From: Pristiophorus japonicus
Lineage: Eukaryota
Direction: 5' to 3'
Length of the DNA stretch: 64,000 nucleotides
Assembly: GCF_044704955.1 (NCBI RefSeq)
Contig: NC_091999.1
Coordinates: 50,282,001 to 50,346,000 of the forward strand
Within the stretch, counting starts at the first letter, position 1. Each line of letters begins with the position of its first letter. Made by a program: the position numbers and the translations under genes. Shown piece after piece: positions 1 through 51,499 of the stretch. Under the pieces are notes generated by a model. That model was given only the letters and a program-made list of their open reading frames with translations. It was not told the DNA's origin and did not search any database.

Positions 1-649
1 TCTTGGTGTTCGCACCATCGCATACTGCTCAAACCTGCCAGTGACTCTCCATTTTATTGATGTTACAGGAGTTCTTTTAATTTACCACATCATTGTGTTC
101 AAATCCTTCATGGCTCGCTTCCCGTCTACATCCCCCTTTTATCGGCTATGCTTAGTGGTAATGGTCAGCAAGCAGCTCCTTTAATGGGAAGCTCCCTCAC
201 AGCTGCCAGAACAACATTAATTGTTTCCTTCACTGCTCTCCTTTTCAAATTGACACTGTTAAAGAGGTAACATAGACAGATGTTTGAGCGATAAGGGAAT
301 AAATGGTCATGGGGAGAGCGCAGGGATGTGGAGCTGAGTCCATGATCCGATCAGCCATGATCTTGTTGAATGTCGCAACAGGCTCAAGGAGCCAGGTGGC
401 CTAATCCTGCTTCTATTTCTTGTGTTCTTATCACATTTTCCACCTAGCTACATACGGAGATATTAGGGCAGATATTTAGGGGTGGAATTCCAGAGTTTAG
501 GGCCGAGGCAGATGAAGGCATGGCGGCCAATTTTGGAGCGATTAAATTGGGATTGCACAAGTGGCCAGAATTGTAGGAGCAGACAGGTCGTGGAAGGTTG
601 TCGGTTTCAACAGTCTGAAATTAATGCAATTGCATCTTAAACCTTTCCT

Positions 650-1100
650 TTCGTTATTAATTATAGGGATATGGATTTCACTGGCATGTCAGCATTTATT
701 GCCCGTCCCTTGGTTTCCCCTTGAGAAATTGCTGGTGAGCCATCTGCTTTTCGAACCACTGCAGTTCTGCTCCTTTCAAGTGTTTGATACAACTGGGGGT
801 GCATGCAGGGCCATTTCAAAGAGCTAATTCACGTTGAGTATGGGACTGGAGTCACATATAGGCCGGACGGGGTAAGGACGGATGATTTCTTTCACAGACG
901 GGATGTTCGTGTACCCGTTGTTTTTTTTTGCCAAAGCCGATCATTTCATGGTCACTTTTGCTGATACCAGCCTCTCATTTATTTTTTAAAAATCGGAATT
1001 TAAATTCCCAAACTACGCAGGTACCATTTTAATTCGTGCAATAAAATGCTTCGCCCAGGCGTCTGGATTACAAATGGAGTAACATAACGAAAACACCGCT
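650..1100 (-). mobile_element. Degenerate tRNA-derived SINE (shark HE1/V-SINE-like)
   Basis: Resembles a common shark SINE body read on the minus strand (CAGCATTTATTGCCCGTCCCT...CTGGAGTCACATATAGGCC...GTCTGGATTAC). A related, more decayed copy lies on + at about 1500-1780. Recognised from memory; boundaries approximate. Confidence 0.5.
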
Positions 1101-1789
1101 GCAACTTTTTTAAGGCGTAATGTTCTCTGCCTCAAACAGTGTTTGTGGCAAAATATCCCATGCTCCAACCAATCCTACGCTCGCGTCCATGCATATATTT
1201 TTCCGAGCTTCTGTCACTCTCTTGTTAATATGTTTAATTTGATGACCTTTCTTTACCGATTCCCACAAGCAGAGGAAGCAGTCTTTTCATCTTCTCTCTA
1301 GTAAAGCTACTTTACAACAAAAACTCGATTAGATCGCTTAGACTTATTAGCTTCAATCGAAATCTCAAGTCTAACATCATAAATGCAGTTACAATTGCTA
1401 GGTTCGTCTTTGTCCATATCAGCAGTTAAAGCTTCCAACTTTAATATGATTTCTATAATAGGACATCTTGCTCTACAGACATCAATCTTACAGTAGACCA
1501 ACCAGCCCAGCAGTAAGAGTACTAGACCAGTGACTCACAGTTAGTAAGTTCGAAGCTCCCCAAGCCGTGAAACTGATGTAAAATACAGCTGAAAATATGT
1601 GAGTTGCCAAAAGGAAAGTAGGAAGAAAGCTGACGGATGGTTGTTAAAAACCACAATTGGTTGAATAATATCTTTCATTGTAGGGAAACGGTTCCTCACT
1701 TAACCTGCTTCTCTGCTAATACACTCAGGGCGCCTGGGGATTGGCACGTAAAACCTCGCTGTAGTCATTCACCTCCCAGAAACAAAGAT

Positions 1790-2586
1790 AATTTTGAGGC
1801 CTAAAAATTTAGTTGTCCGAGTACAGCAATCACTAAAAGCTAGCGGACTGGACAGCTACACAAATTAGTTAAAAGACTAATGGTGGGCTGGCCTTTATCT
1901 CTAGGGGGCTGGAGTAAAGTGTGGTAGCAATTATGTTAAATCTGTATATATCACTGGTTGGATCCCATTTAGAGTTCGGGTTTCAGTACTGGGGATCACA
2001 CCTCAGGAAGATGGACTGAACTTTGAGGGGATTCAGCGCAGATTCACCAGGGTAAAATTATGAAGACAGTGTGCATAAACTAGGTTTCTATTCCCTTGAA
2101 TATGGAATATTACGGGGAAGTTTAATTGATGTGTTTAAGATGATGAAAGTATTTGATATTGTGGATAGAGCATGAAACATGCAAGAAGGAATGGCGCTGT
2201 TATCACTGAGATATTATATCGATGGATTTCTCTGCCACGGTGTTGTGGAGGCTGGGTTATTAATACATTCCAAAGCCTCAAAGCCTCCCCGATAAAGTGC
2301 AACATCCCCACTGACACCTAGGAGTCGCTGGCCCAAGACCACCCTGAGGGAAGGAAGTGTATTCGAGAGGGCGCTGAGCAACGCGGGTCTCAACGCCGAA
2401 AGCATGTAGAAATGAAGCGCAGACAGGAGAAAGAGCGTGCGGCAAAACAATCCCACGCATCCCTTCCCTCAACTACTATCTGTCCCACCTGTGACAGAGT
2501 CTGTGGCTCTCGTATGGACTGTTCAGCCACCAAAGAACTCACTTCCGGAGTGGAAGCAAGTCTTTCTCGATTCCAAGAGACTGCCT

Positions 2587-2617
<31 letters not shown>

Positions 2618-2783
2618 CATTTAACACAGATTTTGACAGATTTTTGATCGATAAGGAAATAAAAGGGTCAGGGGGAGCAGGCAGGGAGCTGAGTCCATGA
2701 TTAAATCAGCCATGATCTTATATATTGTGGAGTAGGCTTGTGGGGCCAGGTGGCCTCCTCCTGTTGCTATTTCTTATGTTCTT
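1790..2783 (+). mobile_element. CR1 LINE 3' fragment, interrupted by an RTE insertion
   Basis: Decayed CR1 ORF2 C-terminal sequence ending in the CR1 tail TTCTTATGTTCTT at about 2771-2783; split at 2270-2613. Confidence 0.7.
2270..2613 (+). mobile_element. RTE-clade LINE 3' end with (TGA)n tail
   Basis: Encodes the RTE C-terminus (...CNIPTDT.ESLAQD...KERAAKQSH..LPSTTICPTCDRVCGSR...) followed by a (GAT)n tail. Flanks ATACATT / ACACATT look like a target-site duplication. Confidence 0.75.
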
Positions 2784-2809
2784 GTGTAACTCCGTGCTTC
2801 GAATCCGAA

Positions 2810-3778
2810 GCTCCCCTGTTTACCCAGGCACCCAGAAGAGCAGATACAGGACATTGAAAAACTAACTCCTACAAGACGATAGAAACCTACTTCTGCCGAT
2901 GGCATCTCCGGCCAAACCGGCAAAAGATTGTCACCTCGGCATTCCGCTTTAACATCCATCAAGCATACCAAGCTTTGAAAGGCTCCTGATGTGGAATAGC
3001 GGTAAACGATGCCAAAAAACCCTCCTATTTAGGATTCACGCTGGATCACACGCTGTCATATAGACAACATCTCCAGTACGTTGGCAAGAAACTGAAGAGT
3101 AGAATGAACATGATCGAGAAACTCGCCGGATCCACATGAGGAGCATACCGTCAAGCCCTCCCCCTCCCCCCGTACTACAGCACTCGCACTGGTTTACTCT
3201 GCAGTGGAGTTCTGCTTTCCGGCTTGGATATCAATTTCGGTTGTTAAAACCGTTGATGTCCAGCTGAATTCTATTATGAGAATAATCACCGGTACGCTTT
3301 TATCGACACCAACACCTTGGCTCCCCGTGCTTACAAACATTGCACTACCACATACACGTCGCAAATAATTAGTCTCCAGAAAATACATGCTGATACAAAG
3401 ACATGATGATCCAGGCAGAATTGAACAATCTGCCACCAACACGTCTTAAATGTAGAATGCCATTTTGGGGCACTACCAAAGCCCCTCAACGATCTCCCCT
3501 CAGCCTTAACGACCGATGGCCAAATGCCTGGTAGAACTGAAATGGATTCCTTCAAGTAAACCCCACAGTACATCCTATAGAATCTGACCTTCATCACAAA
3601 GAGTGCGGGACCATTTAACTGCCTCAGAACTTGTCATGATAGATGCAACCACCATCAACATAGGAGAAATATTAATGCAACCCCATTAGGCCACAGTGGA
3701 GCTACAAAGTAGAAACAGGAGCACATCATTGAGTACTTGGAAACTGACATTTGACATGTGATACTACCAAACGAATTA
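2810..3778 (+). mobile_element. Non-LTR retrotransposon fragment, Vingi/Ingi-like RT C-terminus
   Basis: Manual translation gives YLGFTLDHTLSYRQHL..KLKSRMNMIEKLAGST*GA...ALALVYSAVEFCFPAW...DVQLNSIMRIITGTLLSTPTPWLPVLTNIALPHIRR, with stops and frameshifts. Confidence 0.65.
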
Positions 3779-3779
3779 G

Positions 3780-4503
3780 AGAAGGCATACGGAGAGAGAG
3801 AGAAGCAATGGGAAATCAGATAGAGAGACACTGCGACATTCAGAATTAGAGGGAAAACGATAGGTATTTAGACAGAGAGACACTGAGAGTCGAAAGGGAG
3901 AAAAACAGGAGTGATCAGATAGAGGGACACGGAGACAGTCAGACAGGGAGATGATCAGGCGTAGTCTGAGTGTAAGACATTGAGGCAATCTGACAGTGAG
4001 ACTGAAACAGTGGGTGATCATACAGAGAGAAACTGAGACAGTCAGACACAAACAGAAACAGGGTGTAATCAGAGAGCGAGAGACATTGCCATAGTCAGAC
4101 ACACAGAGAACAGGGATTAATCAGAGAGGGCAACAATGTGACAATCAGACAGATAGAGAGAGAGAGCAGAGTAATCAGATAGAGACACGCTGAGGCAGTT
4201 AGACTCAGAGAGCTAGTCGCAAAGAGTAATCAGATCGAGAGACACTGAAATAGCCAGACAGAGAGGGAGAAGCAGGGAGTATTGAGATCGAGATATACTG
4301 CTACAGTCATACAGAGATAGAAACAAGGGGCAATCATATAGAGACTCACTGAGACACAGTCGGACAGGGAGCGAGGGAGACGCAGGATGTATTCAGGAAG
4401 AGAGACATTGAGACATACAGAAAGAGAGAGAACGAGAGAGATAGAGTGAAATAGAAATAGAGAGAGAGAGAAAGAGAGAGAGAAATAGAGAGAGAGAGAG
4501 ATC

Positions 4504-4535
<32 letters not shown>

Positions 4536-4548
4536 GAGAGAGATAGGG
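3780..4548. repeat. GA-rich degenerate simple repeat running into an assembly gap
   Basis: (GA)n/GATA/GACA-rich low-complexity sequence; another tract at about 5760-6020. Confidence 0.85.
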
Positions 4549-4790
4549 NNNNNNNNNNNNNNNNNNNNNNNNNNNNNNNNNNNNNNNNNNNNNNNNNNNN
4601 NNNNNNNNNNNNNNNNNNNNNNNNNNNNNNNNNNNNNNNNNNNNNNNNNNNNNNNNNNNNNNNNNNNNNNNNNNNNNNNNNNNNNNNNNNNNNNNNNNNN
4701 NNNNNNNNNNNNNNNNNNNNNNNNNNNNNNNNNNNNNNNNNNNNNNNNNNNNNNNNNNNNNNNNNNNNNNNNNNNNNNNNNNNNNNNNNN
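4549..4790. other. Assembly gap (N run)
   Basis: Run of N. Confidence 1.
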
Positions 4791-6410
4791 ATTATCCAGA
4801 GGTAAAGAAATAGAGAGAGACAAAGAGAGACTGTAAGGGGACAAAATACCATCACTAAAGTGGGAGTGGACAGACGGACAGATGGTCACTAAAGTGCCTA
4901 CTGAAGGTAGTGAATTGATCTGACACATGGTCGAGATTTGTAGGCCTTATCAGTATTAGGAGGTTCTGAGGAATCAGGAGTTCCTCTGTCTTACGGTAGG
5001 GATTGTAATATATATTAAATTGACCGGTTGTATGAAAAACTCACTTATGTATGTACAGCACGCTTATACACTCGCTTTTTATGGGTTTTAAGTAGCGGAG
5101 ACAGCAAATTGTGCTTCACAGTAAAGCGTGATGAACCATTCGTTGTGTTAACCTTAATAAAGACTGAGGGAAACATACATTCAGTACAGCATAACACATC
5201 CATCAAGGTCAGTGGAGAATTAACAGTTTAGAAACAACAAGATTGGACAGCATCTCAATCTCATGGGATTCTGAAGGGAACTCAAACATTTTCACTAGAA
5301 TTCTCTTGGGAACAGGATATGAAAGTACGTATTTGGGAAAAAGATAGCAAATCCTGGGAAGCAATTTCAATTCAAACTTCATGAGGAATTGAGGCAAATT
5401 TGACACCACAGAATAACACATTCCAGAAGGGTGACATGTGATGCAAGATGGATAGGTGGCGAAGCACCACTCAGAGCCAGTCTGACAAGGGTCGACTCAT
5501 CAATGCAAGTTCGTTGATATCAGTAGGCCAATCGATGTTTTTTTTAAGAGGGGCGCACACCTCTAAAATTGAAGAAATGTATTTGCAAAACCTCTGTTCT
5601 GGGAAGGTCCATCCATGAAATCTTCCCCTGCATGCTTGAATAAAAACCGGTTGAAACGAAGTTTCATGTGAGTGATTCTGTGGTCGCTATTCGGGCGGGT
5701 GGGTGTCGATTGCTTATATCAGGGAGTCCACCTTGAGGAAGAGAAGTTTTCCTTCTACACCAACAGAGACAATGATACAAAGAGGTTGAGAGATACAGCG
5801 ACTGAGCAAGCGGTACAGGGAGCGAGAAAAAGAGATAGAGAAAGAGAGAGCGAGAGAGATACATAGCTAGATAGACTGATACAGAGATACAAAGAGAGAT
5901 AGAGATGGAAAGAGAGAGAGAGAGAGAGAAAGGGAAAGGTACACAGATAGAGAGACTGATACAGAGATAATGAGAGACAGAGAGAGATGTAAAGAGAGAC
6001 AGAGAGAGAGAGAGAGAGAGATTCGTGATTGTGTTTCTTGATAAAGATCTTCACTCCAACCTCAGTATCATGATTTCAATCTTGTCTTCTGACGCTGATT
6101 CGTCCTGTTTTTTTGCATGGACAATGAAAGGTTGACCATGTTATAAAACCCGTCAGCATCTGTCAGTATGTGCTAGAAGCTTTCGTTTCTACTTATGGTT
6201 TGCAGCGATCTGTTCCCCAGGTGCCATTCAGGTATTTGTTTCCAGTAGCTCTCCTGTTTACACTGAGGGTGGGCTTTGCGCAATGCATTGAGCTGTGTGT
6301 ATGTGTTACTGTCATTTATGAAATTGCACGTATGGGTTCAGCCTCCATTGCTTGAGTGTTGTTTATTCTGATAACATGATGCCTTTTACTTGCTAATGCT
6401 CCTTATCCAG

Positions 6411-6710
6411 TCCAGTGAGGAAATATTGTCCGTGTTTCAGGACCCACCGAGTATCATCTTGGGTGACGGGCAAAGTTTCACTTTGAAGTGTAATTATCCG
6501 ACATCACCTCCTCACCCTTCTTTTTTCTCATGCATTCAGCAGCCAGAGGCAAATCCGCAATAAATACTGCAAAGCTCGAGCCAGAAAAAAATTAACTGCC
6601 TTTGGGAAGTGTCTGCTCTAGTTACATTAGACAATGCCATAGGAACTGTTCATTTAACCATTCAATATTGCCAGGTGTCTGACAGCGTCATTTATTACTG
6701 TTCACTGGGT
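6411..6710 (+). pseudogene. TCR V-alpha/V-delta-like variable exon, pseudogene
   Basis: The frame from 6411 reads SSEEILSVFQDPPSIILGDGQSFTLKCNYPTSPPHPSFFSCIQQPEANPQ*ILQSSSQKK...LDNAIGTVHLTIQYCQVSDSVIYYCSLG. Both V-set cysteines are present (6489, 6699), with TLxCxY, a decayed WYxQxP..PQYIL (TAA at 6561) and DSxxYYC. Preceded by a pyrimidine tract and AG (6409-6410). A possible decayed leader lies at 6168-6231, after TATAAAA (6142). Confidence 0.75.
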
Positions 6711-7749
6711 ACAATGTGCTCTGTGCACAATGTGCATGGTTGAAAGCAGGCTTTTCCCATCTGTCAAGCTCCAACTTGACAGATCCTCCACATCTCAGCA
6801 GCCAGCACATTCGGATGGGCAAGATTGCGTTATTTATCCATATCTTGCCCAGTAAATGTCCTGAAAACTTGAACCTGATAAAAGCATTTGCATAGCCTTC
6901 TTTTAGAGGCATAGAGTTTTAAATCATAAAACTCATAGAAAAATAAAATTTTAAACACATTTTTTGTCAAAAGCCCTGCCCACTGAGGTAAGTTTATTTT
7001 AAACTGGAAATTAAAAAAAACTTTTAAAAATTTGGAAAGTTTTTTTTATTGGACAAAAATAGCTTTAATTTAAATAAATATTAAATATGTGGTGTATTTT
7101 CTATTTTTTTTCTTTTTGTTTTGATGTTTGGCGGGTGTGTTTCTCAATCATAATAATCGGAACTCCAACTCATGGAGTTCCCATTATTTTAAATGAGAAA
7201 ATATTGTATCGTGATTGGCTGCCCAGGGCCATGTGATTCCAGCTCAAGCTTCTGGACGTTAAGACGTGCACGCCTCCGTTGCACAGCGTGGAGGCCTCAA
7301 GGCCTGAATTGATGGTAGTCGCAGCATTTGAAGGTAGTTCTGCAACTTTTAAAATTTTTTAGTGAATCGCCTTCGGGAAGACCTCGACTGGGATTTCTAG
7401 ACCATTATTAAAAAAGAATGTGAAGATTGCAGTTGCGACTGTGTTTGCTGACAGAAATTTCGATGTACCACATGGTCGAGACCGTGCCTGTGATTGTATC
7501 AAAACCTAATGTGCAGCGTCAGGAAAACATTGTGCCAATTTGGAACAGTAAGAGGAGGGCAGACCTTCCAATGATGAAGTTTCTTCTTGAGAACTTAACT
7601 TTGGTATTTTTTGCCCAAGAGCGCACACTTTAATAGGTTTAAAGTCCATGTTAAGAAAATACAAAAAGGAATGTATTACACATTTGTTCGTGTTCCTTTG
7701 TGAACTTTGCTGACCTGACGATTTGCCAGATAATTTTGCATTATCCTTT

Positions 7750-8425: not shown

Positions 8426-9333
8426 CTAGTTTACTAACTTTACAATTCGATTGCAAAAATATTTTGCCGCATGCTTTAACTCCTCCCTGAATTTTTTCTG
8501 AGTCACTGCATAAATAGACGTGTTGGTGCAGCAACTTAGGAGCTGGAGCATGTTTCCCCTTTCCTGGCGAATGAACCTGGGGTCATTGAAATGGGAACCT
8601 GCGAAATAAGATTCGTTTGTAATTTTCACGTACACGAAATCTACAACATACGTCATCCATAACAGGATAAAACTGCTCGAGATGGTGAAGAGTAAAATGA
8701 TGGACTTTCTGCGCCTCTCCATTTCTGGATCACTCTCATTCTTTCCATTGATGTGGGCCCGGAGCCTCCTGCGGGCTCTGTTGGCTCCTACAATGTCTCT
8801 GACGGTCACAGCATTCAGCAGCAAGATCAGGAAGAACGGGAGGCCTGGGTTTAAAAGACGAGCAAACCAATCATACGCTGTCCACGCGAGTGAAGTGTAG
8901 AAGCTTGATTTAATATTACAACACCAAGGGACCTTGTTGATTATAGAGAGTGGTTCGTATATAAAGTACCAGGGAATGCTTTTTAAACAGCTCAGTAAAC
9001 AGACCGTTCATATAACCACAGCCGCTGTTTTCTCGGTGCAATAATTTGTTTTCAGCTTCTGGCAACAAATGGCTACAAATCGATCAAAGGTGAAAGCGAC
9101 CGTTAACCAGACCGAACTCTCCGTGGCTGCATAAATTACCACAGTACTAAGAGTACACGCCGGGGTCAGGGACAAGAAATTAACTGGAAAATAAATGCCA
9201 CTATTCCGATTGAATATCACAGCTGTGATAACGACCAGAAGATCCGTCACCGCCATGGACACAAGGTACCGAGTGATACATCTGGAGAGACCGCACCTTC
9301 CTCGGGACAGGATCACAATTGCCACTAAATTAA
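8426..9333 (-). pseudogene. GPR139/GPR142-like class A GPCR, main coding exon with one in-frame stop
   Basis: The acceptor (TTCTTACTCTCAG on -) precedes VNLVAIVILSRGRCGLSRCITRYLVSMAVTDLL...SVWLTVAFTFDRFVAICCQKLK. TGA at 9008-9010, then the same frame continues (61 codons) into ORF 8824-8426 ...EMERRRKSIILLF...LQLLSCCTNTSIYAVTQKKFREEL. The short first coding exon was not confidently found. Confidence 0.9.
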
Positions 9334-9997
9334 CTGAGAGTAAGAAGAAAGTTAACATTGGGAAGCTACCAGTCAAAGTCTCAGCAAACACATAAGTGTG
9401 ACAGTTATGCTGTGACATTTTGAGACTTCATCCAAACACAGCAGAACACCGTTGACAAAATATACCCCAAAAAATATTAGTGCGTTTCCAGTGCCACCTG
9501 TATCTCGACATTACTCGCGATAATTAGTTTTATCTGTAGGATACAGTATAATATAACAGGAAAGTAGCTTAAAAATATAATCGTCAGTATTAATAAGTTT
9601 GTATTATGACAATGTATTATTTCATAGAGCCGACCACGGTTTAGATGTGGCCATTGGGATACTGCAAGATATTACTCAGTAAGCAGGAGGATTCATGTTA
9701 ATCCAATTTAAATGGCATCAAAGGGTATGTGTAAGATTTCTCGCTTGTTTGGAGCTAACACGCCTCCAAACTGTTCTAGATTCTGTTGACATCTGATCTT
9801 TATAACCAAACAAACTCGATATCTTCAACATAAACACAACTCTAACCCCAGCGAGACTGGAGTGTCTATGGTTCACACTTCCATTTACAGGTGATGTGGC
9901 ACATGACAACAGAAACACGACATGAGAATAATCTCAGAATTGATAGGTTCACAGCTACTGATCTCACATCTAGGTGTATAAATCGGCAAAAGCTCAC

Positions 9998-29029: not shown

Positions 29030-29242
29030 NNNNNNNNNNNNNNNNNNNNNNNNNNNNNNNNNNNNNNNNNNNNNNNNNNNNNNNNNNNNNNNNNNNNNNN
29101 NNNNNNNNNNNNNNNNNNNNNNNNNNNNNNNNNNNNNNNNNNNNNNNNNNNNNNNNNNNNNNNNNNNNNNNNNNNNNNNNNNNNNNNNNNNNNNNNNNNN
29201 NNNNNNNNNNNNNNNNNNNNNNNNNNNNNNNNNNNNNNNNNN
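29030..29242. other. Assembly gap (N run)
   Basis: Run of N. Confidence 1.
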
Positions 29243-30947: not shown

Positions 30948-30999
30948 ATGAGGATGAGGTCGGCGATTGCTTTCGTTCTGTTGCTGGCTTTACTTTCCC
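30948..30999 (+). pseudogene. IGHV: IgM VH leader exon
   Basis: MRMRSAIAFVLLLALLS plus 1 nt, then a GTGAG donor at 31000. The intron ends TTTTTACAG at 31127. Confidence 0.9.
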
Positions 31000-31127
31000 G
31001 TGAGTAGATTTTATTGTCCAATTTTCTCATTGTTACTGTCTCAGTGAAAGTCTCTCTCTGGAATTTTACAGAGTCAGGAATCATTTTTCGAGGATTGATC
31101 CTCGGGGTATTTTGATTATTTTTACAG

Positions 31128-31447
31128 GTGTCCAGTCGGATGTGGTGTTGACTCAGCCCGAGGCGAAGACCAGGATTTCCTGAGGCTTCCTGAGACTGAC
31201 CTGTAAACCAGCGGGTTCGATCTTAGCGGATATGGGATGAACTGGGTCCGCCAGGTTCCCGCACAGGAGCTGGAGTGGCTGGTTTACTATTACACTCCAT
31301 CGAACAAGAATAACGTCCCAGGGATTGAGAGCCGAGTTACTGTATCCAAAGACACTTCAAACAATATCTTCACGTTGGACATGAAGAACATGAGGAGCGA
31401 AGACACCGCCATCTATTACTGTGCAAGGAAGGACTACGGGAGTGGGT
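31128..31447 (+). pseudogene. IGHV: Shark IgM VH exon fused to a D segment (VD), pseudogene
   Basis: [25 protein letters not shown] (TGA at 31181-31183), then a 1-nt deletion, then [28 protein letters not shown]...[28 protein letters not shown] followed directly by AAGGACTACGGGAGTGGGT. Confidence 0.95.
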
Positions 31448-31485
31448 CACGGTGAAATACAGAGCGAGCTCTCCATACAAAAACC
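31448..31485 (+). promoter_or_regulatory. Recombination signal sequence, 22-nt spacer
   Basis: CACGGTG (31448-31454), 22 nt, ACAAAAACC (31477-31485; perfect nonamer). Confidence 0.95.
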
Positions 31486-31802
31486 CCAGACAGTGAGTTT
31501 GCTCAAACCTGCGACCATTACCACGCCAGGAGCGTCGAAGGAACTGAGGCTTAAATAAAAATAATTAGAAATAAGTTATATATATATATATATTTAAATG
31601 TATAACAGTTTTCTTCTTTATTACTATTGACTGCCATGTTGAACATGCACAGATGCTTCAGAAGTATTCCAATCATTTTTGTAAATATAATGAACGGTAA
31701 AAAATGAAATATCTCGCTGATTCACTCTTACGAGAGTCGGAATCGGGTTTTTAGAGCTGTGTGGAATTTAATCTCTGTATTTTACAGTTAACAGTCCGCC
31801 GG

Positions 31803-31830
31803 AGTATTTGACACAACGTGTCTCACTGTG
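31803..31830 (-). promoter_or_regulatory. Recombination signal sequence, 12-nt spacer, in front of (D)J
   Basis: AGTATTTGA (6/9 match to GGTTTTTGT), 12 nt, CACTGTG (31824-31830). No nonamer-like sequence at 22/23 spacing. Confidence 0.75.
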
Positions 31831-31880
31831 TTACGCAATGGGCTACTGGGGACAAGGGACCATGGTGACGGTGACTGCAG
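31831..31880 (+). other. IGHJ: JH segment (possibly a germline-joined D2-J)
   Basis: T TAC GCA ATG GGC TAC TGG GGA CAA GGG ACC ATG GTG ACG GTG ACT GCA G = YAMGYWGQGTMVTVTA, then a GTAAG donor at 31881. Confidence 0.95.
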
Positions 31881-34800
31881 GTAAGGAGCATTCACTGATT
31901 CAGTAACACTTGTATTTGTGTCTTTATTTTATATTTCTGTTTATTTTAATAATTACTTTGTTCACTGAAACTTGGGTTCGGTGGATTTTGTTTTGAGATT
32001 TTTTGCACTTATCAATGTGATTCTGCTGCAAAGTGATTATAGAATTCAACTGTTTCTCCACAGAAAATGTTGTTGATGTGATTTGGTATTTATTTGCTGA
32101 CGAGACTGTGTGTCGAGGTTACTTTAAATACCTTATGATTATTACACTGTTTGACGTTTCTGCAATGTTTAATCTTGGTGACCTCTGATTGCTGCAGTTT
32201 TTCTGATCGAATGCAAACATTGTGTTTGAATGTGTTTAAAAGAACATTGTAGGCACAAAGCAGAAAGCTTAGTGATCAGTAAATAACCTTAAGGAATTTT
32301 AAGTTTTTTCATGAAAATTACATTGTCATCTCCTGACCGAATGTTCCCGAATGATCAGATTCAATACGTGAGCTGTAATTAAGAACTGAAAAATTAACAT
32401 ACTTCCAGCTGGAACACATTTAAATTAACATTATTATAACGTAGTAATATCACCAATTATTATTTAAATATGCTATAATATCAAAATTAATGTATTTAAC
32501 ATGATCCATCTAATCACAATTCTCTGTCAGTATTTTATATTTCTGTTGAATTCAATCATTAGTTATTTCAGTGTGAGGCGGGTTCGGTGATTGTATAATG
32601 AGATTTTTTTGCAATGATATATTTGATTCTGCTGAAAGGGTTTATAGAATTACGGATCTGCTCCATGAAAGGTTCTGTCGAGGGATTCCGCCCCTCAGCG
32701 ATGTGATTTAGTGTTGATCTTCTGAGGAGAGTTCGTGCCTGTGTTACTCAGAATACCTAGAATTTGTGAAGCTGTTTGGCGTTTCTACAATGTTTAATAT
32801 CGGTGACAGCAGCAGGTTTCTGATCGAATCCAAACACGATCTGTATTTTGAAACTGTTTGAAAACAGTCGGTAGGCAAAGAACAGGACGGGTTTAGACAT
32901 CAGAAATCATTGAAAGGTATTTTAAAATCACAATTATTGAAGTGATAATTATATATTCAACTATTAATCTATGTTGACGATGCTGGTATTTTAATATGTG
33001 AAATGTAACTAGTTGCCATCTACATAATTAACTTATTCTGGTTGTAGTTGAATTAAATTACAATTAACCAACCGATTATAATGCAATAATATCTCCGAAT
33101 GTTATTAAAATATGCTATAAGTCCAATGTTCATTTACTTAATATTATTCACCTTCAAAAATCCTGCTCTACACTGGGCACCATTAAGAGAAGCAGAAACT
33201 TTTAGAGGCTGGATACAGTTGTTAATTATGGCTGCAATTATTTCATTAACAACATACTGATTCCACCGCTGTGTTCAGTTTGAGTCGGGAGTTCAATTAC
33301 TTGCTACCTCCTGTTTACACAGATGAATGACTGAGTGCAATTAATTATAACTTAAAGCTGTGTTGCAAATTGCATTTCGTCAATTTAATATATCTGCCGG
33401 GGTGTGACATTCTCACTGTGTTGCCGAAATTTGTTATTGAATCAATATTGTGTGTTGTTTGATAAAATTATCACTAAGTTAATCTTGAACACTTTGCAAG
33501 AACAAAAGCTGAGAGAGAGGCATCGCTGGCAGTCAAAGAATTGTTTATGTAATTATATTGAAATTCAAGGCAGGTTCCGACTGCGTATGGCTGGAGAAAG
33601 CAAATAATCCATTGAAATTCAAGCAGATTAATTTACTTTCAAAAGGTTCATCTGATTTTGAATTTGAAACAAAATCCTATCTCCCAAAACGCTGCTGTAT
33701 GCGGAATAGAACGGTAGACAAAGCACAAATCATATCTGAGTGCTATGTTTAATTCTTATTAATATTAAATTGATGAACAAAGTCTCTCCTCCATTTGCTC
33801 ATTCAGTTTCAGTGCCCCAGATGGTCTGAACGAATTGTTATCCTCTAGTTTTACACTGACCATTCTGGAAACTATTTTCAAGAAGTAGCAGAATATATTT
33901 AATCATCAACTTACGGGCATTTTGTGAATAACTGGTGTGTTCACCCATGAACTCATTGAATGGTGGTGCAGGCGCGAAGGGCCGAATGGCCTACTCCTGC
34001 AGCTATTTTATTGTTTCGATGAACTTTAAAAGATTGTCTGTGTTATTAAGTAGCGGAGGCTCTGCTACTGACTGCAAACTGCAAGGATATATTTTAATTA
34101 ATAAAAACGTTTTTGGGGATTAAGGTTGAGGAGAATATTTCAGCTCGAGATTCCAGCATTAGTAAACAAGCGGTTTACAGCCCATCGGAGTTGTGACCCC
34201 GGCTGGACAGAGAACTATTTAAATTAGTCCACACCCAAATCCATCATGTGAAATGTTCTTTGCAAATAGACGCAGATTATGCGATATTAGAAACATGCAG
34301 AGTTTAAAAAAGTGTCGGTCGAGAGCGGGACAATAGTAGAAATGCGTGATTATTGTCAATTATTCAAATTTGATTCCATTTAAGTAAAAATAAGGTATAT
34401 TTCTGAGTAGTTATGTATTAATATGCTGCTTAATATTGTAATATTGATTAATTGTTATGGTAAGTTAAGTAAACCATAATATATCACAAGTTATCAGGCA
34501 GAAAAGGTTTTAAAATTATTAATAATTACTTGTATTTGTATGGCTGAAATTCAAGCACATTAATTTAATTTCAAAAGTTCCAGGTAGGTATGCTTCTGAG
34601 GAGGAAGGGCCAGACTGGCACTCAGATTATTTTCAATATTCAGCTAACATGAACATTAAATTAGAATGTAACATCAGTGCTAATTCATTAAAACGTAAGC
34701 GAGCCATTACAATTGTGTTGCATACTGGTCAGTATTACAATTATTGCAACGTTTCAAGGGTTGGAGATAATGTTTAATTCATTCATAAATTAATTTAGAA

Positions 34801-37690: not shown

Positions 37691-38428
37691 TTAAGGAGTA
37701 ACTTCAAATTAATCGGATTTTGGAATGGTATTATATTCGGATTATTAATTGAGTGGCAGGAAGCAGGCTACTCAAGAGAAATGCATATAATAGCATGGAA
37801 TAGAGCTCAGATCACAGTGCACTGAAGGACATCGCTCTCCCTCAAATGCTGAGAAAATAAGGAATAAATTCGACTCAATCGCGGTTCATTTACAACTTGC
37901 ATCTTAGAAACTAGACTATGGAAATGCTACCTGTTGAATTATGTGGTAGGCAAGTTTGGAGGGTTTTTTGCTAACGTCCGAAGCAGGAATTCCGATGTTA
38001 CTTTGAAGTGCAGTCACTGTTGTTTTGTACTGATAAACCGCAGGCAACGTGCACAGAGCAAATTTCCCCAAACTGCAATTAAATAAAGGACAAGAAATGG
38101 TGCTGATTGAGAAATAAATGCAGGCCGAAATAACAGGAACATTTCTCTGTTTTGCTATTGTATGATCCAATGAAGGCGTCTTTATTGACGAGTTGTGCAA
38201 AGGTTCTTGTTGTGTAATGTGATAGAGCTCGGTGATAGAGAGGTGCGTTCCTGACCAGCGCATTGACAAGTGCTTACGATAGAACTGACAGAAGCTCAAA
38301 TGCCTGTGTAGTCTTTGATGGAGAAATGGTGGAATTAGTTTATTCTGCAGTCAAATTTCGATTTGTTTATTTTTTTTATAAGCACGGATTACAGAGTCTA
38401 ACTTGTTCAATGGGCCATTCCTTCCCAG

Positions 38429-38728
38429 TAACACCGTCTCCCCCCACCCTCTGCGCCCTGCTCTCCTCCTGTGAACAACCCAGCACCGATGGCTCCATCA
38501 CGTAGGGCTGTTTGGTGATGGACTACTCCCCTGACATCATCAGACTTTTCTGGAAGGAAGATAAAGAGCCGATCACCACTGGATTGAAGATCTACCCGTC
38601 ATTGCTCAAAAGGAATTGAGCCTACACACTGAGCAGCCAGTTAACCATCACCGAGTCCGAGTTGGGGAGCAGCACAATTTGCTGCGAGGTTCGACGTGGT
38701 GGGTCGGCGTGGAGCATCACAATGTCAG
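38429..38728 (+). pseudogene. IGHM: Cmu1 (CH1) exon, two in-frame stops
   Basis: [99 protein letters not shown] at 38427-38428, GT at 38729; TAG at 38503, TGA at 38617. Confidence 0.95.
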
Positions 38729-38769
38729 GTTAATGATGTGGGATACAGGGCAAACTGTGATAAGGTGAG

Positions 38770-39097
38770 AAGTTATGTTCAACTTGTATAGAAACTTGGT
38801 TAGACAACAGTTAGAGTACTGTGCATAGTTCTGGTCTCCATATAATACTTAGAATACTGTGCACAGTTCTAGTTTCCTTATCACATTTAGAATATTGTTT
38901 ACAATTCTGCTTTCCTTCTCATACTTAGAATACTGTGTGAAGTTCTGGTCTCCATATCATACTTAGAATAGTATGCACAGCTCTGGTCTCCATATCACAC
39001 TTAGAATACTGTGCATGGTTCTGGTCCCCATATCGCACTTAGAATATTATGCACAGTTCTGGTCTTTATATTACACTGAGTATACTGTGCACAATCT
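38770..39097 (+). repeat. 38-bp minisatellite derived from the CR1 RT motif LEYCxQFWSP
   Basis: Units TTAGAATACTGTGCACAGTTCTGGTCTCCATATCACAC at 38811, 38849 and onward (about 7.5 copies), preceded by single-copy CR1 sequence (VMFNLYRNLVR). Confidence 0.85.
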
Positions 39098-39219
39098 TGC
39101 TCTCTTCAAATGCCAGGTTCGTGTGAATCTGACAGCAAAGAACTTGTTAAAATATAAGGACACTTTGCATTTCTTAATCATTTAGTTTACAAGCAATGTC
39201 AATAAAATGCCTTCTCGTG

Positions 39220-39540
39220 AACGTCCTGAACGGATCATCGTTCCTCCAATTGTTCTCCTCTTGCTAAGTTCCACTGAACAAATCATCAGCAGCAGATATG
39301 CAAGCGCCATGTGTTCAATCATCGAATTAAGGCCAAAGTCACTGACCGTGAATTGGCTGAAGAGTGGACAACTCCTGGATTCGGGCTTCACCACCTCTCC
39401 CGCCTTTGAGATGAACAGAAACGTTTTGACGGCCAGTCGGCTGACACTCCCCGCCAGGGAATGGTTCACCGGCTCGGTCCACACCTGCCAGGTCACTCAT
39501 GAAGGGGGCACACAAAGCCGTAACTTCAGCAGATCTCAGG
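39220..39540 (+). pseudogene. IGHM: Cmu2 (CH2) exon; open frame, but the acceptor appears mutated
   Basis: ERPERIIVPPIVLLLLSSTEQIISSRYASAMCSIIELRPKSLTVNWLKSGQLLDSGFTTSP...SRLTLPAREWFTGSVHTCQVTHEGGTQSRNFSRSQ. GTAAG donor at 39541; TG rather than AG at the expected acceptor (39218-39219). Confidence 0.9.
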
Positions 39541-39669
39541 GTAAGAGGCACAATCCAGGGAGGTTCCAGACCATTCTGAGCGCTGATCTCAGTCAGGACT
39601 TTGATTGAAATTAGTAGAAAGCAGAGGAATATTCCTAATTTCCAATCATGCAGTTTGTGTATTTTTGCA

Positions 39670-40105
39670 ATACAATGTTGCCTTTATACAGCGCCTTCAG
39701 CGACCACAGACTGAACCAAAGCGCTTGCCAGGCAATGAATTAAGTTGTGAAATGTGGTTACAGTTGTAATGTATAAAGTGCGGCAGTCATTTAGTGCACA
39801 GCAAGCTCCCAATAAACAGCAGTGTGATAACGACTATTTTTTTTGTTCAGTGTTATTTCTTGAGGTATTAATATTCCCAGGACACTAGGGAGAACTCCTC
39901 TGCTTTTCATTGAAATAATTCCAGGGGAACTTTTACCTCCACCTGAGAGGCTAGACGGATTCTTGGTTTAACACATGATCCCAAATACGGCACCTCCGAC
40001 AATGCACCACGCCCCCAGTACTGCACTGAGAGACTCAGCTTACATATTGTGATCAAATAACTGGAGTGAGACTTCAACCCACGATCTTCTGGTTCAGGAT
40101 TCCTC
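39670..40105 (-). mobile_element. Deu-domain SINE
   Basis: Reverse-strand copy of the family at 22130-22580 (CTTTTACCTCCACCTGAGAGG...ACGGCACCTCCGACAATGCA..CCCAGTACTGCACTG). Confidence 0.7.
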
Positions 40106-40289
40106 ATTGCTCAGGGTTTATTAACCTCGCCAAAGTAGCTTTCCCCTTGCTCTGGCGTCAGGCAGTGAGTGAAGTGTCCTTAGTCTCAGGTATATCCTGA
40201 GTTGGCTGATCATATACGAAATGGCAATAGGTGTCTGGAATCCTTTAATGCTAACTGTCCAGGAACCCACTGCAAGAATGGGCATCTAC

Positions 40290-40810
40290 CCTATTCAGAG
40301 TACTGAGCCCAATTCTGGGCTCCGCACCTGAGGAAGGATATACGTGGAGGTGCTGAACTGCAGGTTTACCCGAATTATACCGGGGCTAATAATGTAAAAT
40401 GATCAGGTGGTGAGTATAGAACGTCAAGAGATGATCCAATTGACGTGTTTAAGTTGATAAATGGAATTGTATCGATTAGATATAGAAACATTTATTTAGT
40501 TTGATGTGAGAGTCCACAACAAGTAGCAGAACCTTAACATTAGAGTTAGGCCGTGCAGAGGTGATGTCAGAAAAGATTTTCTCACAGGAAGAATAGTGCA
40601 AGTCGGGATTTCCCTCCCCAAAAGCTGCTGACACTTGCTTTCAATTGAAAAGTTGAAAACTGAAATTGATAGATTTGTGTTCGGCAAGGTTATCATGGGT
40701 TACATAACCAAGGCGTGAAGATGGTGTTGAGTGTTGATCAGCCATGATATAACTAGATGGCGGGACAGAATGGATGGGCTGAATGGCCTTCTCCTATTCC
40801 TATGTTACTA
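40290..40810 (+). mobile_element. Degenerate CR1 3' end
   Basis: LEY.AQFWAPHLRKDI-like start; ends ATGGGCTGAATGGCCTTCTCCTATTCCTATGTT. Confidence 0.65.
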
Positions 40811-41512
40811 TTAATGCCCTGAGGTCATAGTGCTTTCTGAATCTCTCTCACCAGACATGATAAATGTTCAGTAATTACAGATATTTACAAACTACCTCAC
40901 ATCATTACAAATGATGCCCCACCACAAAAGATTCCTTGCAACTCCATTCTCCGGAACTTGCACTTCTCCTCTGACGGGGGATGTGACTGGTTCGTGCACA
41001 TTTTCATCGCAACAAAAATAGCAGCAAAAGACTAGAACCTTAACTTTGTTTCCTGTTGTCCCATAAATCCTGAAATTAATTTGACACTGGTTTTGAACAA
41101 GTATAATGCTGGTGTAGACCTCTTGAACTTGGGCTATTCGGGCTTCAGCTATTATAACCAGTGGAGATGCACTTGGGTGCAATAATCTATAGATGGGCAT
41201 AAAGGAGCAAAGGATTTCAGAAAGAGCGCTATTCAGTGCCTATCACAATTGCGTCCCAATGTATTCCCATTTTATGCCAGGCATTTGTTTCATAGCCCAT
41301 TACAGGTGGCTCTGGCTCAAATACACAGGAAATATTACAGACCTCCCGGAATCGTTGCCAATTCATTGTCCTTCCATAACGACGGTGTTCAAGCAATAGC
41401 GAGAGGTTGATATCTCAAAAGTGAGAATTTCCACTTGAAAGAGTTAAGGCTAATTATTGGTGTCCTGATTCTGAAGATGCGGCTTTTCCTGACTTTCATT
41501 CCTGTTTCGCAG

Positions 41513-41819
41513 TGGATGTCCCATGCAGCGATTAAAAATCACTCTTCGCCCACCGTAACTGGAACAGGTTTTACTGGAGGCGACGGTGACCTTAACGTGT
41601 GTCGTGTCTGACGCTCCTTATGGGCTCACCGTGACCTGGACCCGAAAAAACGAGACTTTGAAATCAGAGATTGCCGTCCAACCCGGAGAGGATCCCAACG
41701 TGTGATCAGCAACTTAAACATCTCGACAAAAGACTGGCTGAGTGGGGATAAGTTCTACTGCGTGGTGAGCCATCAGGATATGCCGATTCCTCTCAGAGAT
41801 TCCAGCCACAAGGAAAAGG
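41513..41819 (+). pseudogene. IGHM: Cmu3 (CH3) exon, frameshifted with stop
   Basis: VDVPCSD / [54 protein letters not shown] / [41 protein letters not shown] at 41511-41512, GTGAG at 41820. Confidence 0.92.
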
Positions 41820-42736
41820 GTGAGCGGGGAGATTGTTGCAATAAGTGAGCAACTGCGACAATTTCGATGCGTGTGCAAGGGCCAATTGATTATATAAAGT
41901 GTTTAATGGCTACTCTGATCATTCAGGTTGGTAATTCCACCAACTCAGCACTCTGGGACCTGACATTATGTATTTTAGGGGAAACTGGATAAGTCCATGA
42001 GCGAGAAAGAAATAGAAGCGTATATTATTAGGGTTAGATGAAGTGGGCTCGGAGGAGGCTTGTGTGGATCACAACCACCGGCATAGACCAGTTGGCCAAA
42101 TCTCCTCGTTCTGTACATTAAATTCTATGTCATTTTCCAGTCCAACGCTTCAAGATTTCAGAGAGAAAGATCACGTTCCCTCGGATAAGGGATGGAAAAC
42201 CAGAGAGGCAACAGAGGGGAAAAGGTAAAACGTTAAGATTCAACGCAGTGTCCATTTCTCTCACATCTAACCACCGGAAAATTGCTGAATTTAAATGAGG
42301 AAGGCGAGTTGTGGGCGTTGGTCTCACAGGCCACCAGTGAGAGCGGGAGGATTGGAAGCCGAGTGAGGAGGTCGCGGATCGCGGGCGATGGGTTAGGCAG
42401 GGACCCTGGATCCAGGAGTTCGGTGTAAGGGCAATTACCAGCTGGGTGCAGCAATCCCCGCATTGCTGTAACTGCTGAGATTTACACAGTTTGTCAAGCC
42501 GGACCAGCGACAGTTAAACACCAAATGGTGGTTAAAATAGAGGATTCCAATCTCATTTAAATATATTACTCAAATATAATATTACAACAGGAAGTAGGCG
42601 AGTTGAGTTCGGGATTCTGATTTTTACCAATTTAACAACCTCCACGCCCAATACCCGCCCGCTGTATTGGGTTGAAATTCCCCCATTGTCTCTGGAACTA
42701 TCCAGTTCATTGGCCTTTGTTGTAACTGTCCTACAG

Positions 42737-43102
42737 CGAAAGATCCGCGGGAACCGGCCATGTCTGTCCTCCTGCCCTCGGCAGAAGAAGTCTCCGCCCA
42801 GAGGTTGGTCAGCCTCACCTGCTTAGTGAGAGGTTCTCCCCCCGAGAGATCTTCGTCAAAAGGACCGTCAATGATAAACTGGTGGATTCCGGCAACTACA
42901 AGAACACCGAGGTGATGGCGGAGAACGGCAGCAGCTCCTTCTTCATCTACAGCCTGCTATCCATTGCAACCAAGGAATGGGCCAGCGGCGCCTCTCACTC
43001 CTGTGTGGTGGGATATGAAGCGATCCCATTGATAATCACCAACAGATCCGTCAATAAATCCAGTGGTAAAGCATTTCCCTTGTTCTGATGGACAACGTCA
43101 TT
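42737..43102 (+). pseudogene. IGHM: Cmu4 (CH4) exon and first part of the secretory tailpiece, frameshifted
   Basis: [32 protein letters not shown], 1-nt deletion, SPREIFVK(R for W)[69 protein letters not shown], then a small deletion and [10 protein letters not shown]. Internal TM splice donor G/GTAAA at 43065/43066. Confidence 0.93.
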
Positions 43103-48136: not shown

Positions 48137-50745
48137 TTCAATGGATAAATTGTAAGGTTGCAAATAGGAGCTCAGAATTATGATGAAGGTCTTGAACTTA
48201 TAATTGCTACGTAGGTAACACTTGCTTATGTAGGTACAGCGCAAATGTATAACGCATTGAACTGAATCCGTAACCTCTGTAATACTTAAACAGCCGGTCA
48301 GCAGTTTTTTTAAGTCCCTGAGGAAGAGATAAATAAGCAAGTACAGCCACTCTAACCGTCGGATAGACTGGGGCAGAGGGAAAAATGGAACAAAACAATG
48401 ATGAGAGATGGTCTGTTGCATTTACCACTCAGAGCCCGTCGGATAAGAGTCGACAAATCAATGTAACTTCGCTGATATCAATAGACCTATCGATGATTTT
48501 GCAGGAGGATAGCTCCTCTCCAAAACCTGTATAAGTTATGCTTGAAAACTTTTTTTTTCGGAGGTTCCACGACTGAACCTTCCCTTGCAATTGCTCGTAA
48601 TAAAAGCCAGTTGATCCTGGGATTTCGTGTGTTAACTTCCGTGGTCGTTATACAGTGGGAGAAAGGTGAGGTGTCGATGAACTTTATCAGTTAGTCCACG
48701 TCAAAGAAGAGAAGCCTCCTTTTTAACCCCAACATTTGGCGTCATCAACCGAATGCAGACCTTCCGACCTGGATCACGTGACAGCTAAATGGTAGTGAGC
48801 ATGTTTTTTACCACATGCAGCTGTAGCATTGACGGGGAAGGAGTTAATTTGTATAAATAATTAGAAGGGGTCAGCTGTAGGACAACTTATAACGAACCTC
48901 AGATGGCTGAAAACCAAGGGTGGGATCGGTGTATGCCTGAAAAAGAAGGAATGCAACCGCAGGGGGAGTGGACCCCAGCGATCGTTTTGTGAAATATAAG
49001 GCGTATGTCCTGAAGCGTGACGTGGTAATAACACTGTGAAGCTGGTATTGATCGTGTGAGGTGCAAACAAGAAGAAATACAACCTAAACCGTGGGTTGGG
49101 ACCCCAGGATCCAAAGAAAACAGGTCAGTGGGATAAAATGCTCGCTGAGATAAATGGAAAATTAATAAAAGAAAAGAAAAATGTTGGAAATCAAATTGAA
49201 TTTACAAAGGACAGTTTGTTTTTATCAAAAGATAGAAATATGACCTTGAAAGCTGCAGAGATGCAAAGATGATGAGGAAAATGGACTGGAGGAAGATCAT
49301 CAAAATACAAAACCTAATTTGAAGAAACGAGATTTAAATTGGCTGTGAAAAGGATATTGGTTGAAATATAAAAACTTATGAGTTAAACCCGACAACGCTT
49401 TGTGCCGAGAAAGAGAAACCAAGATGTTTAACTATGGACTGGAGTAAGGTCATCAAAAAATGATTAAGTTCAGATTCAAAAGGGGGAAAAGGTCTAAGCT
49501 ATGTGAACTCAGCACAGAAAGAAAAAACTAGGAATTACAGGATTCTTAAAAAGATGGACCGGCACTGAAGTTTAGATTTTGTGCTGAGAGAAATAAAACA
49601 CAAGATTTGCTCAGTGAACGGGACCATAAAAAAACAAAATGCTGGAATGTATATAGCTTGCGTGAAAATTGGATTTCTGGAAACAAAATAGCTATTAAAA
49701 TGTGTGGTCTCGCTTTAAATCAATAAAAAACTCGTTGGCAAGTATTTGAATTGGATGTGTAGAGAAATTGGAGTTTAATCTAAAATGCTGCCTTTCCCTC
49801 TGAGAAGGTTTTATTTTGACAACTTAACTAGTAATTTCTACTATTTTAACGGATTCCTAATTTCATAGCAAGTTTTGAAAGCACAAAGACTTGGGAAAAA
49901 TTTGCAGATCAATACCCGAAGTCACGTAATGACGCCAGGCCTTCTTACAAACCTGTAAAAGAGTTAACCCTTTCCATTGAAAGCTGTTTTATACTGGACA
50001 TTATTAATTTGGATTTCTTAATAAAAGAAAAAAGACTCACCTGACAGACAGAAGAAATGTGGGGATATACAGAATGAAAACAAAACGAAGAAAGCCTATG
50101 TAACAATATTCACCTGCTGCAGAGGACAGATAGATACTTAAACGCATCAAATTCAAGAGTTAGAAGCTCAGATAAATAAGCTCGCAGAGAAAAAGACAGG
50201 ACCAGATTGATAGTGCAGAGCACAGCCATAGCACCATCACCTACGGTAATAGAGATAATGTACCCCAAGGTGGGTAAGTGCAGTCCACAAACCCAACCTA
50301 ACAGTCAATCAGACAGGGATAATGAGTTTGGAGTAGAGGTGGCCCCGGCACATGATAATGGCTATTTATCAGTGGCACTGATACGTACGACCACCATTCG
50401 CTCCAGTGGGAGTAGAGCAGCCCAAATTACCATAAAGGAGGTGCCCCTCAGCCCACAGGAGACAAATTCTATTGAATAAGTTACCACCCGCTAAAGCAAA
50501 ATAGTAGAGATACAGAACTCTGACAAAAGATTGGAGTAGAATACTGTGACTCAAAAGGCAGGTAAAAGTGTTGGGGAGTACGGGGAACGAAAGTGGATTG
50601 AATACAAAAACCACTCTGGGGCTGATGACCGCAACATAAATGATGCAGCATTCTTGAAAATGTTTAAGGATGGACGAGGAAAGGCACATCAAAAGATAAT
50701 TAAGTGATTATTTAAGATTGGAGATGATTATGATGAAACTTTGGA

Positions 50746-51147
50746 ATGGGCAGAACATGTAGAGGGGTTAAAGATAGAACAAGGGATAAAAGAGCAAAAA
50801 TAGCAACAACAGCTTTAGCAATAGAGACGAAGGAGGAAGAGACACACTCCTGCGCAGCTCCACTGATATGTTTAAACTGCAATCAGGAAGGCAAGTTCAA
50901 TAGGGATTGCCTGCAGAAAAGCAGAGGTTTCGGCAATTCTAAAGGGAGATGTCAAAATTGTGGTAAACTTGGACATCTGGCCAAAGATAGCTGGAGTTAT
51001 GAGGAAGGCGCTGGATGGCGAGACCACAAACAGGCACAGAAGGGAATACCATTAATCAGGGAAGATCTGATGGACATGCTCAGACAAGTACCAGCACCAC
51101 TGGTATCACTGCCACCACCACCGCCCCAATCAGAGAACACCCAATAA
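50746..51147 (+). pseudogene. gag: ERV-B gag nucleocapsid region
   Basis: Two degenerate CCHC knuckles, CLNCNQEGKFNRDC and CQNCGKLGHLAKDS. Confidence 0.85.
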
Positions 51148-51499
51148 CCAACTTAGATTTGCACCTGACCCATAGGACCATCAACATACAAGGAGAGAGT
51201 GGGGCATATCAGAAAGCAACCCTAAGTGAGATGGTGTTGTCGAAGTACAGGGGTAATGCTACCTGCTCAGTTTTGGTGCTGTCAGAATACAGAAGGCAAC
51301 ATAAAGAAGGTATACAGAAGGCAGCGATACATTAAGGGAGATAGGGGTACGAATAGCTCTTCAGCGTAATCGGATAATTTTGGGGGATCAGCACGAAAAC
51401 CGAACTCAGTTCGAAAACTCGGGACACCAGCAGCAACGAATGGCAGGAACAACCATAATCCAACCCGAGTGGGATTCAAAGGCTGTATTGGGTAGCGTG

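Follow-up and report, generated by a model that had tools for sequence, protein, structure and literature searches.

A decayed TCR alpha/delta-type V segment copied together with a dead IgM cluster, far from the TRA/TRD V array, in Pristiophorus japonicus

A decayed T-cell receptor V segment of the alpha/delta type precedes a dead IgM cluster on the same contig (here C23) that carries the working TRA/TRD V array, at a distance of tens of megabases. It is likely that this dead TRA/TRD V left the array long ago, together with three neighboring V segments and the 3' tail of an IgM gene, and was then carried passively to 21 places as a dead IgM cluster underwent segmental duplication. The V segment and the downstream IgM died before multiplying, and they multiplied together. 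We refer to the V pseudogene as relic D, the fourth of four V relics in the order A-B-C-D. "The window" is the whole stretch that was analyzed, 64,000 nucleotides at C23:50,282,001-50,346,000. The presence of TCR V segments between IgH clusters has already been published as a general phenomenon; the mapped donor, the shared junction, and the copy history are added here.

Results

The V exon and its decay

Relic D is encoded in a single plus-strand frame, 6411-6707, that holds all of the V-set motifs listed in an earlier, sequence-only reading of the window: SVFQDPP, TLKCNY, SCIQQP, PQ-stop-IL, VHLTI, and DSVIYYCSL. The frame scores 30.1 bits against the Pfam V-set model (cut-off 26; E 5.9e-7). 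Both Cys are present in the window copy, Trp41 has been replaced (SCIQQP), and a TAA sits in FR2. None of the three AG acceptors at 6370-6424 is in phase. A putative leader-like remnant lies further upstream (Table 1), and its start-plus-stop string is identical in 14 of the 20 relic D copies examined.

The 3' end is also decayed. An RSS with a 23-nt spacer is absent, and the sequence is repeat DNA from ~6720. Two heptamer-like words with no convincing nonamer had been pointed out from the sequence alone. Their positions stand, as does the lack of a nonamer (5-8 mismatches of 9 after either word, at every spacer of 11-13 or 22-24 nt), but the CACAATG at 6726 belongs to a high-copy repeat that starts at about 6720-6726. 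Unrelated copies of the repeat read CACAATG at this position in five of six cases and CACAATA in the other. Contig depth rises from ~60 to >1000 at the repeat edge, and two DNA runs of one sample, possibly the source of the assembly, show paralog-type variants and the repeat edge over relic D. Because the window enters the repeat in its middle, the RSS was likely removed by deletion or recombination. The V end at 6701-6732 also resembles, by eye, an old 16-nt tandem duplication (12 of 16 positions alike), and 10 nt of this duplication are missing from seven relic D copies (L008-L014). It is very unlikely that relic D has a functional role, and it has no present function in rearrangement.

Table 1. 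Features of the window and of the adjoining block. Plain numbers are window positions; C23 coordinates mark features outside the window.
Feature	Position	Strand	Remarks
Repeat-rich spacer between relics C and D	1..6030		
Dispersed repeat upstream of relic D	5200..5770		2408 candidates, 40 scored
Leader-like exon remnant of relic D (tentative assignment)	6168..6231	+	Stop at codon 3; phase-1 GT donor at 6232
V exon of TCR alpha/delta-type pseudogene (relic D)	6411..6707	+	Cys23 and YYC kept; Trp41 lost; internal TAA; no in-phase acceptor
Two heptamer-like words	6710..6732	+	TACAATG at 6710, CACAATG at 6726; no nonamer; second word inside repeat
High-copy dispersed repeat, entered mid-element	6720..7407	+	Occupies the place expected for the 23-RSS spacer and nonamer; 3655 candidates, 40 scored
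Rhodopsin-family GPCR pseudogene, split by a stop	8426..9427	-	Inside the duplicated unit; collinear in paralogs
IgM VH pseudogene	30948..31486	+	TGA and frameshift in FR1; germline-joined to a D-like segment; 22-nt-spacer RSS at 31448
JH	31803..31881	+	Degenerate 12-nt-spacer RSS before JH
IgM Cmu1-Cmu4 exons of the downstream dead cluster	38390..43070	+	
Relic A	C23:50,274,670	-	~14 kb upstream of relic D
Relic B	C23:50,279,518	+	~9 kb upstream of relic D
Relic C	C23:50,280,865-50,281,152	+	Just outside the window; ~7 kb upstream of relic D

The downstream IgM cluster and other contents of the window

The VH leader of the downstream IgM cluster starts at 30948, 24.2 kb downstream of relic D and on the same strand, which agrees with the distance of ~24 kb and the shared orientation originally proposed. 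The degenerate RSS before JH is consistent with a germline D-J join, i.e., a VD-DJ cluster. No match to a TM exon for this IgM was found within the window. A run of N at 29030-29242 separates relic D from the VH, and continuity across it is supported: an N-free paralog at C23:46.86 Mb is collinear on either side (94% and 98%), and in a twin copy the spacing from relic D to VH is equal within 8 bp. The window also holds an open, plus-strand rhodopsin-family GPCR frame of 322 aa at 61343-62311 (Pfam 7tm_1, 58.1 bits), which resembles the broken one in Table 1, and a decayed retroelement at 50180-54500 with RNase H and integrase zinc-binding matches at 52976-53551.

Relic D belongs with TRA/TRD V segments

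What kind of V segment is relic D? First, a profile built from 42 intact TRA/TRD V segments of this genome gives it 54.5 bits, as compared with 9.5 bits for the best shuffle (917 of 1000 shuffles scored), and profiles subsampled to eight TRA/TRD sequences give 46.7-58.6 bits. The score is 9.0 bits against an eight-sequence VH profile, so that relic D does not class as VH-type (VH or TAILV), 20.6 bits against a VL profile, and 21.9 bits against an NCR3-like profile built from two sequences only; the TRBV and TRGV of this genome were left out of these class comparisons. Second, among the best 60 PDB matches, the top nine are TCR alpha chains, and the 60 divide into 45 TCR, 14 antibody, and one unlabelled; there is no CD8, NKp30, or lone beta or gamma chain among them. 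Third, an 82-row tree has a 99/98 branch that parts TRA/TRD from VH and VL, and relic D falls on its TRA/TRD side, on a long branch (1.42) without a close family; the NCR3-like rows fall on the TRA/TRD side as well, so that the tree by itself does not separate relic D from an NCR3-like class. Fourth, a search of 1.84 billion representatives returned 121 matches, in which single-domain proteins all have ≤39% identity, and of ten matched proteins that were looked up, three are named as TCR alpha or alpha/delta V, the others being unnamed or generic Ig-like. A word-index protein search that used an alignment of eight relic D pieces gave 767 candidates, none at E ≤ 0.1. No J-like strand follows the YYC, but the repeat cuts the 3' end. 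No look-alike of the window was found in the other genomes compared.

The supporting Vdelta of NAR-TCR is a leaderless V with an extra Cys in CDR1, located downstream of the NAR V-D-J. Relic D differs from it in having no CDR1 Cys, a leader-like remnant, and relics A-B-C as the V segments upstream. It scores 43.5 bits to an array V that has a CDR1 Cys (L061), as compared with 57 bits to the best TRAV. By sequence likeness, then, relic D is best classed as a pseudogene of a TCR alpha/delta V: its affinity to TRA/TRD V exceeds that to VH, VL, or non-rearranging V. The sequence-only reading had judged this affinity correctly in preferring TCR alpha/delta over VH and VL.

The working TRA/TRD locus lies elsewhere on the chromosome

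The TRA/TRD V array, with intact 23-RSS genes, is at C23:9.74-11.67 Mb; it measures ~1.95 Mb, and part of its sequence was examined. There are 63 TCR-type J segments at C23:9.58-9.73 Mb, of which three are at 9.727-9.733 Mb and 60, with 11- or 12-nt RSS, are at 9.584-9.683 Mb; the layout suggests delta and alpha labels for the two groups. A motif scan of C23:9.58-9.77 Mb, which found the J segments, found no C exon, and did not locate Calpha or Cdelta. A search for full-length shark TCR chains with an intact V gave six matches, all non-shark, and none was used. A VH-like V with a 23-RSS lies at C23:9,746,511, between the V array and the three J segments at 9.73 Mb; this is where an Ig-like TCRdelta V would be expected, a label that is suggested by the position.

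Relic D is 38.6 Mb from the nearest array V on the same chromosome, and hence outside the TRA/TRD translocon, without access to its J and C. Because the TRA/TRD locus is so far away, the window (at 50.28 Mb) is not an IgH/TCR interface, which was one of the two settings suggested from the sequence alone.

A block of IgM tail and three V relics matches the array

Relics A, B, and C carry stops or frameshifts yet keep a recognizable 23-RSS, and relics B, C, and D are on the same strand. Upstream of relic A is an IgM tail relic comprising Cmu2-Cmu4 and TM, which lies ~17-20 kb upstream of relic D, outside the window; together with relics A and B it falls within C23:50.260-50.280 Mb. Neither Cmu1 nor VH was found in the 28 kb before the tail. 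The historical partner of relic D is traceable to this IgM tail relic, rather than to the VH 24 kb downstream.

The stretch C23:50,267,396-50,281,245 is collinear, in inverted orientation, with positions 11,464,554-11,428,994 of the TRA/TRD array, at 65-77% nucleotide identity. The intron, Cmu4, TM region, and 3' flank are 68-77% identical, and relic A, the spacer DNA, and relics B and C are 65-75% identical. In the unit and the array alike, the IgM flank DNA stops ~1.9 kb before A, and the ~1.9-kb interval that follows is mostly unaligned between the two. The array counterparts A' and C' are intact and have 22/23-nt RSS. Collinearity ends ~130 bp past C', and the array goes on with other V families. 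B-C pairs are found at three array places and B alone at a fourth, which argues that B and C are native to the array. For relic D there is no array counterpart at the DNA level, since all 21 of the candidates are relic D's own copies; its best array match has 35-37% amino acid identity. A 340-bp match linking DNA upstream of relic D to the donor region was discarded because it is a dispersed repeat.

The V array itself contains two IgM Cmu4-TM relics (C23:9,976,707-9,980,152 and 11,455,834-11,464,554; 83% alike), one of which is directly upstream of V genes A'-B'-C'. In both, the match to the unit begins at the same point, just after Cmu3; the array relic lacks the Cmu2-Cmu3 that the displaced unit has. 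The relic at 11.46 Mb has a 3.5-kb insertion in Cmu4. In trees of the IgM tail, the unit, the array relics, and other IgM tails flanked by V segments part from an open fork at the base, and a sister relation of the unit and the array relics is neither shown nor rejected (3' part, support 41/12; 5' part, AU p 0.45). A recombination model, with an affinity switch along the IgM tail, was also tested, and the outcome did not decide for or against it.

Relic D and the dead IgM multiplied together

Relic D has 21 copies in the assembly, at 90-100% identity, 17 of them on C23 (23-66 Mb) and four on unplaced contigs. Fifteen are full length, with the block kept, and six start mid-exon. The number of independent copies may be lower than 21, because four are on unplaced contigs and the copies at 48.1 and 50.3 Mb are 100% identical over 701 bp. 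Across C23:47.9-48.2 and 50.2-50.5 Mb, window included, there are mirror-image matches that are 99-100% identical where compared, which suggests that an inverted duplication of at least 300 kb joins the two regions, as either a recent event or an assembly artefact.

The copies share their lesions. The TAA and the loss of Trp41 are found in all 20 relic D copies read, and the 21st also shows the TAA. Relics B and C and the IgM 3' flank occur at 15 displaced places each, relic A is present in all seven full copies examined, and TAG and TAA are listed for all 15 copies of relic C. A same-strand VH lies within 50 kb downstream (24.8-47.8 kb) for 16 of the 17 copies on C23, against a random expectation with a mean of 0.5 and a maximum of 5 (10,000 draws); the VH list is a lower bound, with 150 of 514 candidates scored. 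The copy without a linked VH, at 64 Mb, runs into a 200-N gap. Of the four unplaced copies, three have a VH at 25-33 kb and one is 24 kb from its contig end. The 12 linked VH that were read all have the same TGA, frameshift, and germline V-D join. Distances among relic D copies correlate with those among the VH (Mantel rho 0.92, p 1e-4, 11 copies).

This linkage, the correlation, and the common lesions support the second setting suggested from the sequence alone, namely that TCR V segments were carried along as IgH clusters duplicated. The related question of whether other IgM clusters have the same V upstream is answered in part: 19 of the 21 relic D copies precede the same dead, germline-joined IgM, but seven VH of the linked subfamily have no relic D, and the one of these that was read has the same lesions.

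Other displaced TCR V segments near IgM

Further TCR-type V segments lie near IgM sequences outside the array. A second displaced block, with three TCR-type V segments, has four copies, at C23:20.23, 51.19, 52.41, and 65.15 Mb. Its first V has an open frame, a near-canonical 23-RSS, and no array relative with >50% amino acid identity; its third V has a perfect 23-RSS; and a lone Cmu4 lies 30 kb further on in two of the copies. The open-frame V segments at 20.2, 51.2, 52.4, and 65.1 Mb were considered as live genes and rejected: at the donors tried, none showed an open leader, and the 40-70 kb around each of them held no VH, JH, or Cmu1-3. A third displaced block is a decayed TCR V pair, ~1.5 kb apart, at C23:19.62, 37.27, 65.66, and 66.96 Mb; the pair matches tandem pairs in the array, and the copy at 37.27 Mb is 19 kb downstream of a Cmu4. 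Additional IgM clusters adjoined by TCR-type V relics are at C645:1,012,000-1,075,000 and C23:5.50-5.53 Mb.

Discussion

How might this arrangement have arisen? First, IgM Cmu4-TM relics lie inside the array, and one of them sits directly upstream of A'-B'-C'. Second, a block of IgM tail, A, B, and C would have been duplicated into IgH territory. Here the collinearity is observed, and the direction, from array to IgH territory, is suggested by the intact state of the array copies and by B-C pairs being native to the array. The export was probably old, because the non-coding DNA has diverged by 25-35%, as compared with 0-10% among the copies. Relic D may have arrived in the same block, as its position indicates, and its array version would later have been lost; against a joint arrival, it has no array counterpart beyond matches of 35-37%, and collinearity ends just past C'. 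Third, relic D lost Trp41, gained its stop, and lost its RSS to the repeat junction, all before amplification. Fourth, the unit of tail, A, B, C, D, GPCR relic, and dead VD-DJ IgM was amplified.

There is some evidence in support of histories without one-way export. Both places could descend from an ancestral region in which IgM and TCR V were intermixed, or the tail-A-B-C block could have moved from IgH territory into the array. Either would fit the retention of Cmu2-Cmu3 in the unit and their absence from the array relic, the open basal fork in the IgM tail trees, and the occurrence of IgM among TCR V in great white shark, catshark, and stingray (table S1, PMC12227049). We nevertheless consider these histories rather unlikely: A' and C' are intact with RSS in the array, whereas the displaced copies read are all dead and share their lesions, and the B-C pairs at three array places, with B alone at a fourth, mark these segments as native there.

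The lack of an array counterpart for relic D, its long branch, and the absence of any single-domain protein above 39% identity among the 121 matches would also be expected if it had arrived separately from A-B-C, or had come from another class of V (TRBV, TRGV, or a non-rearranging IgSF V such as NCR3, CD8, or NITR). This is improbable given that the best PDB and named matches are TCR alpha/delta V, that the 60 PDB rows shown include no CD8, NKp30, or lone beta or gamma chain, and that the YYC is followed by no J-like strand; moreover, relic D shares its strand with B and C, and in 15 copies it keeps its place next to them. It is highly improbable that relic D serves, or did so until recently, as a functional TCR V whose rearrangement into the downstream IgM yields a TCRV-IgM chimeric chain. 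In favor of such a role are an orientation matching that of IgM, a linkage fixed in 19 of 21 copies, recognizable 23-RSS in relics A, B, and C, and a 12-RSS before JH, with which a V bearing a 23-RSS might in principle recombine. Against it, all relic D copies read have a stop and lack Trp41, a nonamer, and an in-phase acceptor; A, B, and C carry stops or frameshifts; and the partner IgM, which has no TM exon in the window, is dead in each of the 12 copies read. The connection to chimeric IgHV-TCRdelta chains that the sequence-only reading had drawn finds no support, with relic D and the downstream VH both dead.

Export from the array followed by passive copying may also be part of a wider pattern. 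We put forward tentatively, as a possibility with rather less than an even chance of being right, that array-embedded IgM clusters have repeatedly budded out with flanking TCR V segments, giving at least four such lineages on C23 and C645, this unit included, and that relic D is an extinct TRAV family surviving only as a passenger. Leads come from three more groups of displaced V blocks, located on C23 and C645. If this were true, shark IgH territory would be a datable fossil record of Ig-TCR exchange.

What are the implications of these findings? First, what had been published as a one-line observation can now be traced as an event: the donor has an address, the IgM-TCR junction is shared, and the steps have an order. 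Second, the direction and age of Ig-TCR locus exchange become testable by comparing related shark genomes. Third, there is a warning for annotators: such V segments are passengers, and should be taken neither as repertoire nor as a sign of chimeric receptors.

Comparison with known systems

Mammalian IG and TR loci have orphon V segments that were copied out of the locus by segmental duplication, cannot reach J and C, and are decaying. The likeness is a displaced, decaying V; the difference is that here the orphon block lands and multiplies in another antigen receptor locus.

The closest precedent is in elasmobranchs. IgH clusters are linked to TCRad, and TCRad-type V exons lie between IgH clusters (Flajnik et al. 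2025, PMC12227049); table S1 of that paper places such V segments, some of them pseudogenes, beside IgM and IgM pseudogene clusters in great white shark, catshark, and stingray. As in the present case, these TCRad-type V segments lie between IgH clusters on the TRA/TRD chromosome, megabases away from the TCR constant region; the copies described here are displaced by 11-55 Mb relative to the array. The difference is that the available part of that paper provides gene models only, and names neither a donor segment nor a shared IgM-V junction, a copy family, or an order of events. No description of a donor-mapped or amplified TCR V block was found in the literature searched, a partial search beyond which other sources could bear on novelty. 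In what was available of PMC3964593, close Ig-TCR linkage is stated, with nothing further on this point.

Elasmobranch IgM clusters that are partly germline-joined, as VD-J or VD-DJ, have been reviewed, to judge from the accessible portion of PMC5192425. The downstream cluster resembles them in its V-D join, which has an RSS of its own, and in the 12-RSS that precedes JH, and differs from the clusters described there in being a pseudogene family amplified with TCR V relics. Finally, trans-rearrangement of IgHV to TCRdelta, TAILV, and NAR-TCR are described in the available part of PMC12227049 as arising from the linkage of IgH with TRA/TRD. In those systems, a functional Ig-type V is used by TCRdelta, whereas here a dead TCR-type V lies in IgH territory.
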